A model generated the notes under the pieces. The model made no database searches. It was not told where the DNA came from and saw nothing but the letters and a program-made list of their open reading frames with translations. A program made the translations under genes and the position numbers. This document shows positions 2,447-6,188 of a DNA stretch of 10,032 bases, piece after piece (position 1 is the first letter of the stretch; every line of letters starts with the position of its first letter). The stretch lies in the NCBI RefSeq assembly GCF_036507355.1, contig NZ_AP027880.1; one strand, written 5' to 3'. Source of the stretch: Escherichia coli. GTDB lineage: Bacteria; Pseudomonadota; Gammaproteobacteria; Enterobacterales; Enterobacteriaceae.

Positions 2447-3442
2447 TTACTCGGTCGGACCGCCCTTGTAAGAGATCGGCGGCGGGGAACCGAGCAGCAG
2501 GACGCCGCCCGTGACCGGCTTCACCTTGGCCTGCGGATAGACGGCCAGAACCTTCTTGAGGGCCGGCACAAACTTCTTCTTGAAGTCCTTGTCAGCATCC
2601 TTGCCGGTGTACTCCTGCGCGAACTGCTCGCGCAGAGACTTCCAGTGCAAAGTGACGCCGCGTCCCTCGATGCGATGCAGCCGGTGGGCCAGCCAAGCGT
2701 AGACATCGAGCGCCAGCGCCGAACCTTTCAGGGCCATCAGGGCGCGGTTGTCGAGCGGTACGGCGCTTTGCATCAGTGACGTGAAATAGCCCTCGGACAA
2801 CACCATCGTGCCCGGCCATAGCGCCCGCTGCTTGGTGTCGCGGTTCGCCATCCATGCGTCGAACTGCTCGACCGGCTGTCCATTGAAGGTGCGGCCCTTG
2901 AAGCCAAGTTGCAGACGGCAGGCGGCCAGCGCGTGCATCTGCTTGCGCAGGGTCGCATAGCGCGCCCCTTGGTCGTCCAAGCCCATCAGGCTAAGGAACT
3001 CGGCCGCGCTATCACCGATCTTGATTTCGCGCTCCTTGTTGCGCACGGCAAAGGTGGACACCCACGCCAGCGCCAGCCGGGGCATGACGCCATAGGGGAT
3101 CGGTTGCAGCACCGGCCCGTTGCCTTCGTCCAGATAACCGGCCTGCACGTTCACCCACGCGGCCCCGGACTGGCGCATGAACTCGCGCCCCTCGACCTTG
3201 GCGCGGGGCAAGCCGACCTGACAAAGCACGGCGTGAGTAAACGCCATGTCCTCGCCGCTCGGCGGGTTCGTGGCGATTTCGGCGGCCGCGTCGATCAGGT
3301 TTATCTTTTGGCGACTGATGAATGACAGGCTCTTATTGCTCTGCCCTTTAGATGCCGTAGCGTCGGCCGCCCGCTTAACCTCGCGCGGCACAATGTTGCC
3401 AAGCAGCGAACCGATGGGCTGGGGGCCGTTAGATTTGCTCAT
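2447..3442 (-). CDS. repA: Plasmid replication initiator protein (iteron-binding RepA; TrfA/pVS1-RepA-like family assignment tentative)
   Basis: 331-aa ORF ending 30 bp from the iteron cluster, co-directional with and immediately downstream of the parA-parG operon. GGAGAT RBS about 9 nt upstream of the ATG at 3442. Family call is from synteny and recalled motifs (…SALALDVYAWLAHRL…), not a search. Confidence 0.7.
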   Translation of the reverse strand: MSKSNGPQPIGSLLGNIVPREVKRAADATASKGQSNKSLSFISRQKINLIDAAAEIATNPPSGEDMAFTHAVLCQVGLPRAKVEGREFMRQSGAAWVNVQAGYLDEGNGPVLQPIPYGVMPRLALAWVSTFAVRNKEREIKIGDSAAEFLSLMGLDDQGARYATLRKQMHALAACRLQLGFKGRTFNGQPVEQFDAWMANRDTKQRALWPGTMVLSEGYFTSLMQSAVPLDNRALMALKGSALALDVYAWLAHRLHRIEGRGVTLHWKSLREQFAQEYTGKDADKDFKKKFVPALKKVLAVYPQAKVKPVTGGVLLLGSPPPISYKGGPTE

Positions 3443-3469: not shown

Positions 3470-3727
3470 CTAGTTATTGTGGCGCTGCTCGTATTCATCG
3501 AAGGCCAGCCGCAACAGCTCGTTTAGCTTGAGGTCGTGGGCCGCTGCGAACATGCGGAAACGTCGACGCAGCTCGGCCGACACGCGGAAATTGAGCGGCA
3601 CATTGTTCGCCGAGGCCTCGGCCTCGGCCTTCACCTTGGGGGTGCAGGTCGGCATGTCGGCAACCGGCGCGGCGCTGCCCTTCGTGGCAACAAGGCCGGT
3701 CAAATCAGCGGGCTTCTTGGTAGCCAT
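3470..3727 (-). CDS. parG: ParG-like ribbon-helix-helix partition protein (centromere-binding partner of ParA)
   Basis: 85 aa with a C-terminal RHH fold signature (LNFRVSAELRRRFRMFAAAHDLKLNELLRLAFDEY) and a flexible Ala/Lys-rich N-terminus. Its ATG (3725..3727) lies 1 nt from the parA stop. Confidence 0.75.
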   Translation of the reverse strand: MATKKPADLTGLVATKGSAAPVADMPTCTPKVKAEAEASANNVPLNFRVSAELRRRFRMFAAAHDLKLNELLRLAFDEYEQRHNN

Positions 3728-3728
3728 A

Positions 3729-4379
3729 TTAAACGGTTTCCTTCTTTTTGGTTATCTTCTTAGCGTTCATGCGTTCTTGCACGAAAGCTAAAAGCTGGGA
3801 GATTTCCTCGGCGCTGCGGCTCTTGGGGTCGCTCTCGCCTACGGTGCGGCCGTCCACCATCGAGGCGGCATAGTCCACGCGGTCATGCACGATGGCTGGG
3901 GCTACAGCCCCATGCGCGGACAAGGCGGCCACGGCCTGAACGGTAAGCCGCGCGGTCGGCTTGGCCTGCGTCACGGCGAAGGCGAAAGGCCGGCCGGTTT
4001 CCTGCGCAATGTCCACGGTGCTGCCTACGGCCCGCAGGTCGTGCGGGCTGGGCCGGGTCGGGATCAACACAAGGTCGGCCAGCTTCACCACGTCGCGGAT
4101 AGCCTCGGTGATGGCCGGCGGGGTGTCGATCACGGCCAGCTTGAAACCAGCCTCGGCCAGCGCCCGCAGCTTGGCGGGCAGCTCGGCCAGCGAGGCGGCG
4201 GCCAGTGCCGGGGTGTCGTCCTCGCGGGAGTTCCACCACGCCGAAAGTGACCCTTGCGGGTCAGTGTCGAGCAGGACCGCCGGGCCGGCTCCTGCCTGTT
4301 CGGCGGCAACCGCAAGGTGCGCCGCTAGGGTGGTTTTCCCGGCTCCCCCCTTCTGGCTTGCTAGAACAAGGATTTTCAC
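3729..4379 (-). CDS. parA: ParA-family partition ATPase (small type Ib Walker-type, 216 aa)
   Basis: Deviant Walker A MKILVLASQKGGAGKTT at the N-terminus. GTG start at 4379 with AGAGGG RBS 5 nt upstream. Followed by the RHH partner gene. Confidence 0.9.
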   Translation of the reverse strand: MKILVLASQKGGAGKTTLAAHLAVAAEQAGAGPAVLLDTDPQGSLSAWWNSREDDTPALAAASLAELPAKLRALAEAGFKLAVIDTPPAITEAIRDVVKLADLVLIPTRPSPHDLRAVGSTVDIAQETGRPFAFAVTQAKPTARLTVQAVAALSAHGAVAPAIVHDRVDYAASMVDGRTVGESDPKSRSAEEISQLLAFVQERMNAKKITKKKETV

Positions 4380-4454
4380 ATGCGCCCTCTTGATTCGTGT
4401 TGGGACGCTTTAATGATAGCCAAAAAGCACGCATCTTGCAGAGTCTATTGAACA

Positions 4455-4474
4455 AAAGCACGCTTGCGTGCTTT
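4455..4474. promoter_or_regulatory. 20-bp palindrome aaagcacgc-tt-gcgtgcttt upstream of parA, with an extra half-site at 4424..4432; candidate par operator or centromere-like site
   Basis: Perfect 9-bp arms; the half-site aaagcacgc is repeated 31 bp away. Lies in the parA leader/promoter region. Confidence 0.45.
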
Positions 4475-4475
4475 C

Positions 4476-4526
4476 TGGATTGTGCAATCCAAAAGCCGGG
4501 GCGGCCGGCGCGTGTAATCGCAAACG
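4476..4526. repeat. Inverted repeat A (51 bp), perfect inverted copy of 5576..5626; contains palindromic core ggattgTGcaatcc and motif CGTGTAATCG
   Basis: The reverse complement of 5576..5626 is identical to 4476..4526 (checked base by base). Confidence 0.9.
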
Positions 4527-4557
4527 GGTAGGGAAGGGGAGGCCGGTTTCTGATGCC

Positions 4558-5190
4558 CTATGCCGCCGGAATCTGCCGGCGGGAGGCCCATATTCGTTTG
4601 ACCTGGCTCTCGCTGCATCCGGCCAGCCGGGCGGTTTCCGCGATGCTCGATCCGCCCTCACGCAAGGCCACGACGCGAGCGTGTAGCGCCCGGTTTGGTT
4701 TCCTACCTCTGTAGCGGCCGGCGGCCTTGGCAAGCTCTATGCCCTGCCGCTGCCGCTCGCGGCGGTCCTCGTAGTCGTCACGCGCCATCTGCAGGGCGAG
4801 GCGCAAGAGCATGTCTTGCACCGATTGCAGGACGATGCGGGCCACGCCCTCGGCCGTCTCGGTCAACTCTGACAGGTCCACCACGCCGGGCACGGCGAGC
4901 CGCGCGCCCTTGTCGCGGATCGCCTGCACAAGCTGCTCGGCCTCGGGCAAGGGCAGGCGGCTAATGCGGTCCATCTTCTCGGCAATGACAACCTCGCCGG
5001 CCTGCAAGTCCGCGATCATGCGCAACAGCTCGGGCCGGTCGGCGCGCGCGCCGGATGCCTTCTCACGATAGACGGCGGCCACGTAGTAGCCGGCCGCCTT
5101 CGCGCTCTCGATGATGGATTCTTGCCGGCGCACGTCCTGCTCGTCGGTGCTGACGCGGATATAGACCCGTGCGACCTTGGACGCTGCCAT
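4558..5190 (-). CDS. Small serine recombinase (resolvase/invertase family), about 211 aa
   Basis: N-terminal catalytic motif MAASKVARVYIRVSTDEQ and C-terminal HTH (SIAETARLAGCSESQVKRIW). Start placed at ATG 5188..5190 with AGGAGG 7 nt upstream; the track ORF (to 5310) is over-extended into the upstream gene. Confidence 0.85.
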   Translation of the reverse strand: MAASKVARVYIRVSTDEQDVRRQESIIESAKAAGYYVAAVYREKASGARADRPELLRMIADLQAGEVVIAEKMDRISRLPLPEAEQLVQAIRDKGARLAVPGVVDLSELTETAEGVARIVLQSVQDMLLRLALQMARDDYEDRRERQRQGIELAKAAGRYRGRKPNRALHARVVALREGGSSIAETARLAGCSESQVKRIWASRRQIPAA

Positions 5191-5201
5191 TTTGGTGCCT
5201 C

Positions 5202-5456
5202 CTACCGGATGCTCGGCATTCCGGTGCCCCGGAACATGGCTTTCTGCTGGGCCGCCATCGCGTTCTTGCAATTGGGCGTGTCGGCCAGCTCGCCGGGGTT
5301 GTTCCGGCATTCCGCGATCTGCGCCTTACGCTCGTCGGGATGGTCGAGGAAATAGGCCACGTCATGCACGGGGCGGGCGTCGGCCGCTTCGTCGCTGCTG
5401 GCAGGATTGCAGGCCGTCAGCACGGCCACGGCGGCGAGCGTCATCACAAGGCGCAT
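5202..5456 (-). CDS. Small lipoprotein, EexN/TrbK-like (entry-exclusion family resemblance; tentative), 84 aa
   Basis: Lipoprotein signal peptide with lipobox (MRLVMTLAAVAVLTAC). Mature part has the two-Cys pattern …HPDERKAQIAECRNNPGELADTPNCKNA…. AAGGAG RBS 7 nt upstream of the ATG at 5456; ends 11 bp before the recombinase start (operon). Confidence 0.6.
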   Translation of the reverse strand: MRLVMTLAAVAVLTACNPASSDEAADARPVHDVAYFLDHPDERKAQIAECRNNPGELADTPNCKNAMAAQQKAMFRGTGMPSIR

Positions 5457-5487
5457 AGTTTCTCCTTTGGCGCAGTTGGGTATTCCT

Positions 5488-5530
5488 AAATGCGCCCAGC
5501 ATAGCAGCTAGGGCGCATTTGGTGAATCCG
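5488..5530 (-). promoter_or_regulatory. Candidate promoter with overlapping palindromic operator for the lipoprotein-recombinase operon
   Basis: On the minus strand, TTCACC-17 nt-TATGCT lies about 30 nt upstream of the lipoprotein ATG. It overlaps the perfect 10-bp inverted repeat aaatgcgccc…gggcgcattt (5488..5520). Confidence 0.4.
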
Positions 5531-5575
5531 CGATGCTATTGCGCTAGGCTCGCAAAGCCGATCCATCTGCGCCAG

Positions 5576-5626
5576 CGTTTGCGATTACACGCGCCGGCCG
5601 CCCCGGCTTTTGGATTGCACAATCCA
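5576..5626. repeat. Inverted repeat B (51 bp); here the core sits in a full 30-bp palindrome cggcttttGGATTGcaCAATCCaaaagccg (5603..5632), a candidate serine-recombinase crossover site
   Basis: Perfect inverted identity with 4476..4526. Two 14-bp arms around a central CA dinucleotide (TG in copy A), the geometry of resolvase/invertase site I. Confidence 0.6.
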
Positions 5627-5634
5627 AAAGCCGT

Positions 5635-5678
5635 GTTCGCGCTTCGCCGGGCCATCCTCGACGCGGCGAAGCGCGAAC
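5635..5678. other. Perfect 15-bp inverted repeat with 14-nt spacer (gttcgcgcttcgccg…cggcgaagcgcgaac); candidate accessory recombinase-binding subsite or structural hairpin next to the crossover site
   Basis: Seen directly in sequence; lies 3 bp beyond the 30-bp palindrome. Confidence 0.4.
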
Positions 5679-5707
5679 GCGAGGCCAGCGGCCAATAGGC
5701 GAAAGGT

Positions 5708-5734
5708 CGGCCGGCTCTGCCGGCCGGCTTTTTT
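5708..5734 (+). terminator. Terminator-like GC hairpin followed by T6 in the intergenic region
   Basis: ggccgg-ctctg-ccggcc then ggc tttttt. No plus-strand gene lies immediately upstream, so the role is unclear. Confidence 0.35.
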
Positions 5735-6088
5735 CATGGAATCGGATCCCGGTCGCCGGCCGGGGATTCCTTCAACGTGTAATCGGTCACGCTAGAAAGC
5801 CATAGGACGCGCTAGGAGCGCCGCACCGGCCGGGCCGCTACCTTCCCCCTCCCCTGCCCTAAAGAACGCCGCCACGGGCTGCCAGCGCAGCCGTAGGCGT
5901 ATCAGATTACACGTGCCCCCCGGCCTCTTTTGGTGCTTTCCACCTATCAGCCCGCAACCAGGTCAAAGGAGATCCACGACACTGGCCGCCAGCTCTCTTC
6001 CCTGCCGAGCCTGCCGGCCGGTAGGCCGGCCCATCGCCGGCGCAGCCGGCGCTACAAAACGCTTCGGCCGCTTGCGGCCGTCCGATTA

Positions 6089-6143
6089 GCCGGAGGGGGA
6101 GCCGCCGCCGCAGGCGGTGGGGGAACCCCGCAGGGGTGCCCCA
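6089..6143. repeat. 55-bp GC-rich direct repeat, copy 2 (identical to 2024..2078), immediately upstream of the Rep_3 initiator RBS
   Basis: Exact 55/55 identity with copy 1. Confidence 0.9.
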
Positions 6144-6188
6144 AGGGGGGCGACGTCGCGGAGGGCCGCAGGCCCGGAGGTTGTCAGG

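Follow-up and report, generated by a model that had tools for sequence, protein, structure and literature searches.

A gene for an EexN-family lipoprotein lies between a serine resolvase gene and its candidate promoter on a small plasmid that has no conjugation machinery

The DNA analyzed here is a 10,032-bp stretch (hereafter the window) of a plasmid from Escherichia coli with a G+C content of 63%, and its subject is a pair of adjacent genes on the minus strand, eex, which encodes a putative entry-exclusion lipoprotein, and res, which encodes a serine resolvase (cf. Table 1). The window corresponds to the reverse complement of plasmid p2017.17.01CC_2 (NZ_AP027824.1; 10,103 bp, a length difference of 71 bp), found in E. 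coli from human faeces in Viet Nam, with an identity of 99.9-100% in every aligned block. In that record, the NCBI annotation pipeline (PGAP) labels the two genes 'EexN family lipoprotein' and 'recombinase family protein', respectively. An earlier note on this DNA had drawn attention to them as an exclusion-like lipoprotein gene arranged in tandem with a resolvase gene under a promoter overlapped by an inverted repeat, on a plasmid equipped with mobA and oriT only.

As the note had claimed, the first gene encodes a short lipoprotein precursor with a two-cysteine pattern. Its N terminus (MRLVMTLAAVAVLTAC) is composed of a basic n-region and a hydrophobic core followed by the lipobox L-T-A-C16 (MRLVMTLAAVAVL-TAC16), of which the lipid-attachment cysteine is nearly invariant in 35 family members, while the mature protein is a hydrophilic polypeptide of 69 aa and about 7.5 kDa (grand average of hydropathy -0.78) that contains Cys50 and Cys63. 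The NCBIfam model NF033894 ('EexN family lipoprotein') matched Eex over positions 4-64 of its 65 with 70.2 bits (E 1e-19), the curated cutoff being 33. The conserved core of the mature protein, C-x-N-N-P-G-E-x6-N-C-x-N-A, is present in the window Eex together with its two cysteines, and residues C50, P54, G55, E56, N62, C63, N65, A66, and A69 were invariant in the alignment of 35 sequences. Eex of the IncW plasmid R388, which with that of pKM101 (IncN) falls into the same sequence family (NF033894) and is the nearest relative that has been studied, is 63-64% identical to the window protein over residues 29-84, i.e., the mature core, and both end in GMPxIR, while the window clade differs from R388 Eex in a 10-aa longer acidic tether after the lipid-carrying cysteine. 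By these sequence criteria, the open reading frame (ORF) is a member of the EexN family (IncN/IncW type) and belongs to the R388 clade. The designation 'EexN/TrbK-type' used in the note thus stands for EexN and falls for TrbK, as the Pfam model of the latter (PF20084) scored 14.5 bits versus a cutoff of 23.9 (E 0.039); Pfam returned nothing for Eex at its default threshold, and this sub-threshold TrbK match was the only one at E<=10.

A word-indexed homologue search with the short Eex query gave only three proteins, and it took an exhaustive HMMER search (E<=1e-3) to reveal the family, with 463 representatives of 50%-identity clusters. Unexpected among the EexN-like proteins were several with more than one EexN-like stretch: P0061 has eight of them in 1,506 aa, and P0005 and P0028, each about 250 aa, have two or three. 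In an AlphaFold2 model of Eex, residues 33-38, 40-52, and 61-77 are helical, and the predicted local distance difference test score (pLDDT) exceeds 90 at roughly 31-50 and 61-70. Because Cys50 and Cys63 flank the connecting loop, a disulfide between them likely staples the modelled helical hairpin. Comparison of this model with the PDB using Foldseek revealed no meaningful match (best E-value 2.1), and a profile search of PDB sequences returned zero matches.

The second gene encodes a resolvase with an N-terminal catalytic domain (PF00239, 74.4 bits) and a C-terminal HTH_7 domain (PF02796, 35.6 bits). It shares 88.6% identity with the resolvase of plasmid BPP5P1, 87% with that of locus L010 (see below), and 76% with IncP-1 ParA of pB3, and its relatives are found in 2,727 plasmid records of PLSDB at E<=1e-40. 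An alternative call of this ORF gives 250 aa from an upstream ATG, while both PGAP and the alignment to a relative favoured the 210-aa product starting at 5190. The two genes are separated by an 11-nt gap, as the note had stated: the eex stop codon TAG (5204-5202) is overlapped by the Shine-Dalgarno sequence AGGAGG (5203-5198) that stands 7 nt ahead of the resolvase ATG (5190-5188). At this junction (5191-5201), neither a terminator nor a promoter was predicted, short weak hairpins being the sole scan matches within the operon. The leader of eex is conserved in loci L017, L076, L080-L082, and L007.

Table 1 Features of the eex-res cassette and of the rest of the window. Positions refer to the 10,032-bp window.
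Feature	Position	Strand	Basis or comment
eex, 84-aa EexN-family lipoprotein precursor	5202..5456	-	ORF, stop codon included
eex signal peptide	5412-5456	-	sequence pattern only
Lipid-attachment Cys16 codon of eex	5409-5411	-	
eex Shine-Dalgarno AAGGAG, 5 nt ahead of ATG	5462..5467	-	sequence
eex-resolvase intercistronic gap, 11 nt	5191..5201	-	sequence
Serine resolvase, 210 aa, IncP-1 ParA multimer-resolution type	4558..5190	-	PF00239 + PF02796
Conserved regulatory block of the resolvase family (promoter, dyad, GGAATACCCAA motif)	5457..5549	-	DNA comparison
Candidate sigma-70 promoter, TTCACC (5526-5521), 17 nt, TATGCT (5503-5498)	5498..5526	-	8/12 consensus positions
33-bp dyad, perfect 10-bp inverted repeat with 13-nt spacer	5488..5520	.	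sequence
Weak terminator-like hairpin (GCCGGCCGCCCCGGC, then TTTTGG), 49 nt past the resolvase stop	4495..4509	-	pattern scan
Left arm of 54-nt inverted repeat, palindrome TGGATTGTGCAATCCA (4476-4491)	4473..4526	.	repeat search; upstream of parA
Right arm of 54-nt inverted repeat, palindrome TGGATTGCACAATCCA (5611-5626)	5576..5629	.	repeat search
MobA/MobL relaxase, sole transfer gene of the plasmid	7079..8599	-	PF03389, 105 bits
MOBQ-like oriT, inverted repeat GTTTCTCGG/CCGAGAAAC, then AACTAAGCGCGCCTTCT	8671..8709	+	just upstream of mobA; sequence
RepA (RepA_C type), 85-aa RHH protein (3470-3727), ParA			window gene content
Second initiator, Rep_3			window gene content
RelB/ParE toxin-antitoxin pair			window gene content
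Autotransporter gene with 156-bp tandem repeats			window gene content

Upstream of eex lies a block of DNA that is about 73-77% identical to the corresponding DNA of loci L009-L016 and of BPP5P1, and in BPP5P1 this block precedes the resolvase gene without eex. The perfect 10-bp inverted repeat reported in the earlier note was found within it, with arms AAATGCGCCC (5488-5497) and GGGCGCATTT (5511-5520) and the -10 hexamer of the candidate promoter at the dyad centre. By-eye reading of the alignments indicated that the -35/17/-10 register is kept in L010 (TTCCGC-17-TAAACT) and in BPP5P1 (TTCATA-17-TAAGCT), both of which have diverged in sequence. An ATGCGCC...GGCGC/GGCTC dyad is conserved upstream of related resolvases, with eex present or not, and in L010 it is closely preceded by a second ATGCGCC/GCGCAT pair, an arrangement that resembles a multi-subsite res. 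The dyad half-site AAATGCGCCCT was also considered as a MOBQ nick core (AAGTGCGCCCT), from which it is one base off; six such matches occur in the window versus 5.1 expected (<=2 mismatches), and the resemblance is probably a coincidence.

A scan of metagenome contigs with the promoter motif GGCKCWTTWRGGAATACCCAA yielded eight real loci, half of them with eex. In the four that carry it (L076, L080, L081, and L082), an eex-res pair encodes an Eex 99-100% identical to that of the window, while in the other four (L077, L078, L079, and L084), as in BPP5P1, the promoter and dyad run straight into the resolvase gene. Because the relatives have promoter and dyad directly ahead of the resolvase, eex has, on this comparison, either been inserted between a widespread resolvase gene and the region that regulates it or disappeared from that place in the relatives. 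With eex lying inside the unit formed by the resolvase gene and its promoter, the inverted repeat most likely belongs to the resolvase, as its operator or as a res subsite. This position of eex within the resolvase unit had been overlooked in the earlier note. Two of the contig loci, L080 and L081, are parts of one 18-kb contig (Ga0180221_1001226), which has two eex-res copies with differing promoter dyads, one window-like and the other similar to the BPP5P1 type.

The tight two-gene arrangement with eex first, described in the note, recurs in a second lineage. Loci L009-L016, which include one K. pneumoniae assembly and several metagenomes, carry eex and, 5 nt behind it, the resolvase gene, whose products (Eex being P0003) share 64% and 87% identity, respectively, with their window counterparts; the pair stands beside ArdC, SSB, and ParC-like genes and is directly followed, in the same orientation, by a virB2-virB9 operon. 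For eex and its L010 orthologue, dN/dS was 0.1-0.3, so the gene is under purifying selection, and dN between the two lineages was 0.27 for Eex and 0.09 for the resolvase, i.e., about threefold more non-synonymous change in Eex. A divergent form of the gene was seen in L007 and L008 (81-425), where a 114-aa variant Eex, 80% identical, has kept its leader and had its last residues replaced; the breakpoint lies at the eex 3' end (window position 5209), and a convergent gene for a 1,204-aa autotransporter takes the place of the resolvase. The family assignment had already been made by PGAP, and EexN genes on non-conjugative elements are known from the literature. What is new here is the conserved eex-res cassette, the location of eex between the resolvase and its promoter/dyad, the purifying selection on eex, and its mismatch to the resident secretion system described below; the literature searched contained no description of an eex-resolvase operon.

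The usual surroundings of EexN genes are different. In R388, eex is located between virB5 (trwJ) and virB6 (trwI) in a complete operon for a type IV secretion system (T4SS), and in the nearest other clusters, P0004 and P0031, it is likewise part of full virB operons. The note had assumed that exclusion proteins normally belong to self-transmissible plasmids, and this proved true only in part: of the 122 PLSDB plasmids carrying the family, 103 are typed conjugative. We classified 50 loci from species-representative genomes (L019-L068) by tblastn with VirB proteins, and only 14 had a full virB4-virB11 operon around the EexN gene. Partial cassettes were found at 32 loci, namely VirB5 plus VirB6 at 25, VirB6 alone at six, and VirB5 alone at one, which is at a contig end. 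The 25 VirB5-Eex-VirB6 triads, many of them chromosomal and from Halomonas and Modicisalibacter, have no further T4SS gene within 5 kb, and several VirB6-only loci (L021 and L063) adjoin a tyrosine-integrase-like gene, according to a by-eye reading of the flanking ORFs. A lone eex (4 of 50; L053-L056) was rarer than a triad. Thus, a virB5/virB6 neighbourhood is typical of the family (46 of the 50 genome loci, R388, P0004, and P0031), and it is absent from the window, where profile searches and the PGAP annotation revealed no T4SS or coupling-protein gene, in agreement with the note's statement that the plasmid has mobA and oriT only. Small plasmids with a partial cassette also exist, such as BPP5P1, a 10.9-kb plasmid of Burkholderia multivorans, and pCY-VIM. 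The corresponding trbJ-trbK-trbL triads on mobilizable islands have been described before, and triads on non-conjugative elements were proposed to remodel the T4SS of a helper (PMC5704250; bioRxiv 10.64898/2026.01.12.698999).

Across 43-49 loci, the identity of Eex to its R388 counterpart is correlated with that of the VirB5 (r=0.94) and the VirB6 (r=0.88) encoded next to it, a relation inflated by the relatedness of the loci. For example, the identities of Eex, VirB5, and VirB6 to R388 are 84, 78, and 88% in Oligella and 67, 78, and 69% in BPP5P1. L010 departs from this covariation: its Eex is 54% identical to that of R388, while its VirB4 and VirB5 share only 26% and 24% identity and its VirB6 has no detectable similarity. 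Because the window lacks VirB5 and VirB6 and L010 departs from the family-wide covariation, the Eex of the cassette is most simply read as an IncW-clade protein that is non-cognate to the T4SS of its carrier.

Since neither the window plasmid nor the L009-L016 family has IncW-like VirB5/VirB6, we somewhat favour the explanation that eex is an intact, stand-alone exclusion gene of the IncW clade, directed against IncW-like T4SSs and expressed together with the resolvase. We infer how eex would be transcribed, autoregulated, and localised, as well as its exclusion activity and target. The gene would have become detached from the virB5-eex-virB6 setting usual for its family and, lying now between a ParA/ResP-type resolvase gene and the resolvase's own promoter/dyad, would be the first cistron of an eex-res mRNA. 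The resolvase would probably bind the 33-bp dyad over the -10 hexamer and repress this mRNA, so that eex would be both co-expressed with and repressed by the resolvase, and such a negative loop would let expression surge right after entry of the plasmid into a naive cell. The analogy is with R388, in which ResP represses its own promoter, negative loops lead to a transcriptional burst after transfer, and the authors tied this burst to the quick deployment of exclusion (PMC3937220). The processed product, a 69-aa hydrophilic helical hairpin tethered to the membrane and facing the periplasm, would make its host a poor recipient for conjugative or mobilised DNA delivered by a cognate IncW-like MPF_T T4SS. 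In this way, the cassette would shield the resident plasmid from superinfection and competitors and would not serve as self-exclusion for its carrier's T4SS. Because exclusion hits the secretion machine and not its cargo, as illustrated by RP4 TrbK, which in recipients lowers the mobilisation of RSF1010 (PMC9825185), a working eex would block IncW-like plasmids together with whatever they mobilise, including plasmids of MOBQ type, as the window plasmid with its MobA and MOBQ-like oriT would be.

Entry exclusion is usually viewed as self-recognition by conjugative plasmids, encoded within their transfer regions. If the orphan eex works, a small non-conjugative plasmid would control which T4SS-borne DNA enters its host, and this would affect the spread of resistance plasmids (IncW, IncN, and relatives) and of mobilised small plasmids in mixed communities. 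Moreover, as an Eex that naturally occurs apart from VirB5 and VirB6, the cassette would offer a handle on what EexN proteins recognise in the donor. If eex does not work, it is merely an annotated family member in an unusual neighbourhood. A bolder extension, to which we give clearly less credence, would make the cassette a portable determinant of competitor exclusion, in which an IncW-clade Eex without a T4SS is placed in a self-repressed maintenance operon and used by unrelated plasmids against IncW-like conjugation. Its users would include, at one extreme, a replicon of about 4 kb that has RepA, ParA, and res and lacks transfer genes and, at the other, a conjugative family whose T4SS is unrelated, and its expression would peak just after the plasmid establishes. 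In that case, non-conjugative elements would be excluding the transfer machines of other plasmids.

Several points weigh against a stand-alone exclusion gene aimed at IncW-like systems. The argument for its specificity is an indirect one based on covariation, and close relatives inflate the correlation; an identity of 63% may fail to preserve the specificity of R388 Eex; and the targets named elsewhere concern other proteins, i.e., VirB6 homologues in reviews of other exclusion families (PMC12282955) and VirB5 in a preprint on an unrelated protein (bioRxiv 10.64898/2026.05.09.723464). The promoter that the note had placed under the inverted repeat is the weakest element of the proposed operon, since only 8 of its 12 positions agree with the consensus and a strict promoter scan of 4300-6150 reported none. 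Furthermore, eex is dispensable to the resolvase unit, being absent from half of the loci with the resolvase promoter (4 of 8), and the replicon part that bears it was also found in a metagenome contig without Rep_3 and MobA, which weakens a link to the plasmid's own mobilisation.

The order of genes in L009-L016, where eex-res immediately precedes the virB2-virB9 operon in the same direction, also speaks for a different, rather unlikely explanation, namely that the cassette Eex is the cognate self-exclusion protein of those T4SS plasmids and that it came to the small plasmid passively, along with the resolvase cassette. The window Eex would then exclude that plasmid family, possibly including its own helper, and not IncW-like plasmids. 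In agreement with this, no match to the EexN model was found in the usual virB5-virB6 slot of L009-L016. However, the departure of L010 from the family-wide covariation is difficult to reconcile with a cognate pair, and the slot of L010 (9916-10137) holds another small lipoprotein, a 73-aa ORF product with the lipobox LASGC, next to a 124-aa ORF; neither matches the EexN model, and the 73-aa protein may be the own exclusion factor of that T4SS. Less probable still, in our judgement, is that eex is a passenger of no benefit to the plasmid, left behind after a virB5-eex-virB6 cassette had decayed or recombined beside the resolvase. Such a remnant would fit the commonness of partial cassettes, the L007/L008 variant with its replaced C terminus and no resolvase, the lack of eex at half of the promoter-bearing loci, and the presence of the module in only one of 5,426 complete E. 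coli genomes. It would not be expected, though, to be under purifying selection across a deep split, to keep its pairing and spacing with res in two lineages, to retain intact translation signals with a strong Shine-Dalgarno sequence for both cistrons, or to be near-identical in the metagenome loci L076, L080, L081, L082, and L017 and in two plasmid records.

Finally, Eex might have another role in the cell envelope, either as a protection against antibacterial T4SS effectors, in the manner of Tpf/XAC2611, or as a donor-side modulator of a helper's T4SS. A preprint describes a protein of the periplasm that binds VirB5 and in this way blocks an antibacterial T4SS (bioRxiv 10.64898/2026.05.09.723464), some exclusion proteins are needed in donors too (PMC12282955), and the backbone relatives of the plasmid live in Xanthomonas, Stenotrophomonas, and Bordetella. 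We consider such a role improbable: Tpf belongs to DUF4189, a family unrelated to Eex, no PADLOC model was matched by Eex or by the resolvase, and the nearest relatives, P0004 and P0031, are encoded in full virB operons, R388 itself being conjugative.

Among characterized resolvase units, the arrangement is closest to autoregulated ones such as PresP-resP of R388, in that the window dyad overlaps the candidate promoter, as expected of a self-repressed resolvase. In RP4 parCBA, too, non-recombinase genes precede the resolvase within one operon; the window differs in that its upstream cistron encodes an exclusion lipoprotein. Of the exclusion proteins of the same family, that of pKM101 is, according to the account of Pohlman 1994 given in PMC12282955, one hydrophilic protein that bears a lipid attachment motif and mediates exclusion by itself, and the window Eex is similarly a small hydrophilic lipoprotein with two conserved cysteines. 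R388 differs from the window in having eex inside the T4SS operon, whereas in the window, which has no T4SS, eex heads a putative resolvase operon. TrbK of RP4 (IncP-1) is also a small lipoprotein exclusion factor, encoded between homologues of virB5 (trbJ) and virB6 (trbL), but its sequence relationship to the window Eex is not significant. Triad elements, i.e., GIsul2, the Burkholderia IncP island, PIMEs, BPP5P1, and pCY-VIM, resemble the window plasmid in carrying a gene for an exclusion-type lipoprotein without a complete T4SS, yet there eex is flanked by virB5 and virB6, while in the window it is alone and linked to a resolvase. With MbeD, an exclusion-like gene is also known from ColE1, a plasmid that is mobilizable and non-conjugative (PMC11493245). 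It is an accessory gene of the mob operon with a mild effect, whereas the window eex is far removed from mobA and comes from an exclusion family associated with T4SSs. Exclusion by non-conjugative elements is further exemplified by the triad-bearing islands and by the Sfx proteins borne by integrative and mobilizable elements, and it has been termed 'not well known' (PMC11493245).

The eex-res cassette is bounded by two 54-nt arms of an inverted repeat, which are 98% complementary and each contain the palindrome TGGATTGnnCAATCCA. The weak hairpin downstream of the resolvase gene falls within the left arm and is followed by only four T residues. The left arm is present in L076, L080, and L001, homology to other contigs stops at the outer edge of the right arm (5629-5641), and no other PLSDB plasmid has the arms. 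In L078, which has no eex, the resolvase gene is enclosed by a perfect 35-bp inverted repeat (2021-2055 / 3254-3288) that also contains this palindrome. Exact copies of the palindrome (14 specified bases) occur in BPP5P1 (L003, position 4703), pCY-VIM (L005, 9012), B. multivorans p1 (L004, 2171), and the Mesorhizobium locus L020 (3947), and in these four replicons, which otherwise differ, they precede a virB5-eex-virB6 or eex-virB6 cassette by about 150-660 bp; further copies lie ahead of the resolvase promoters of L079 (2817) and L084 (367). It is absent from R388, L009/L010/L012, L069, and L073, and at <=2 mismatches the 50 surveyed genome loci contained it only in L020 (exact) and in L037 (two mismatches, the level of shuffled sequence). 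The palindrome-bearing plasmids have the ParA and RHH partition pair in common, and the palindrome may be an operator or centromere for a ParA-RHH partition protein; it may also be a recombination hot spot.

Three other explanations of these repeats were considered and rejected. An invertible segment of the Hin/Gin type is at odds with the orientation of the cassette relative to parA, which is constant in the window, L001, L002, L076, L080, and L078 (few observations). Transposon ends are not indicated, as inspection by eye showed neither a target duplication at the flanks nor Tn3-like ends. As for site I of res, the half-sites of the palindrome are unlike those of the promoter dyad, and the palindrome is absent from L010 and from the resolvase-promoter region of BPP5P1, although both have the same resolvase type; in BPP5P1, the sole copy is found about 4.6 kb from there, ahead of the virB5 cassette.

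With respect to the remaining gene content, the relaxase scored 84.6 bits with the NCBIfam MobQ model, below the cutoff of 200. The inverted repeat of the oriT-like site presumably resembles that of RSF1010. Counted by hand, this site has three mismatches at the 17 specified positions of the MOBQ consensus NWACCNNTAAGTGCGCCCTYNN (PMC3832669). PLSDB types the reference plasmid as 'non-mobilizable' despite this oriT-like sequence and gives it the replicon label 'ColRNAI', despite which Rfam found zero RNA families over the whole window. Because the module was found in a single complete E. coli genome among those surveyed and the relatives of the backbone are from other genera (Achromobacter and Pseudomonas as well as the three named above), E. 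coli is probably not the usual host of the plasmid.

An exact 56-bp direct repeat (2023-2078 / 6088-6143) cuts the plasmid into two replicon parts, one of about 4.1 kb with RepA_C, RHH, ParA, res, and eex and the other of about 6 kb with Rep_3, MobA, the autotransporter, and RelB-ParE. In metagenome contig L076, the first part is contiguous and joined through the 56-bp repeat without the Rep_3/MobA part, which suggests that in the window plasmid two replicons have formed a cointegrate. At 2176-2286, downstream of repA (RepA_C), four iteron-like direct repeats (GGGGGTCCGATTTAACG...) with 23-34 bp spacing are probably the origin of the RepA_C replicon. The autotransporter gene, which has HAF repeats, spans the window ends and contains 5-6 tandem 156-bp (52-aa) units at 9087-10010 and 2-215.

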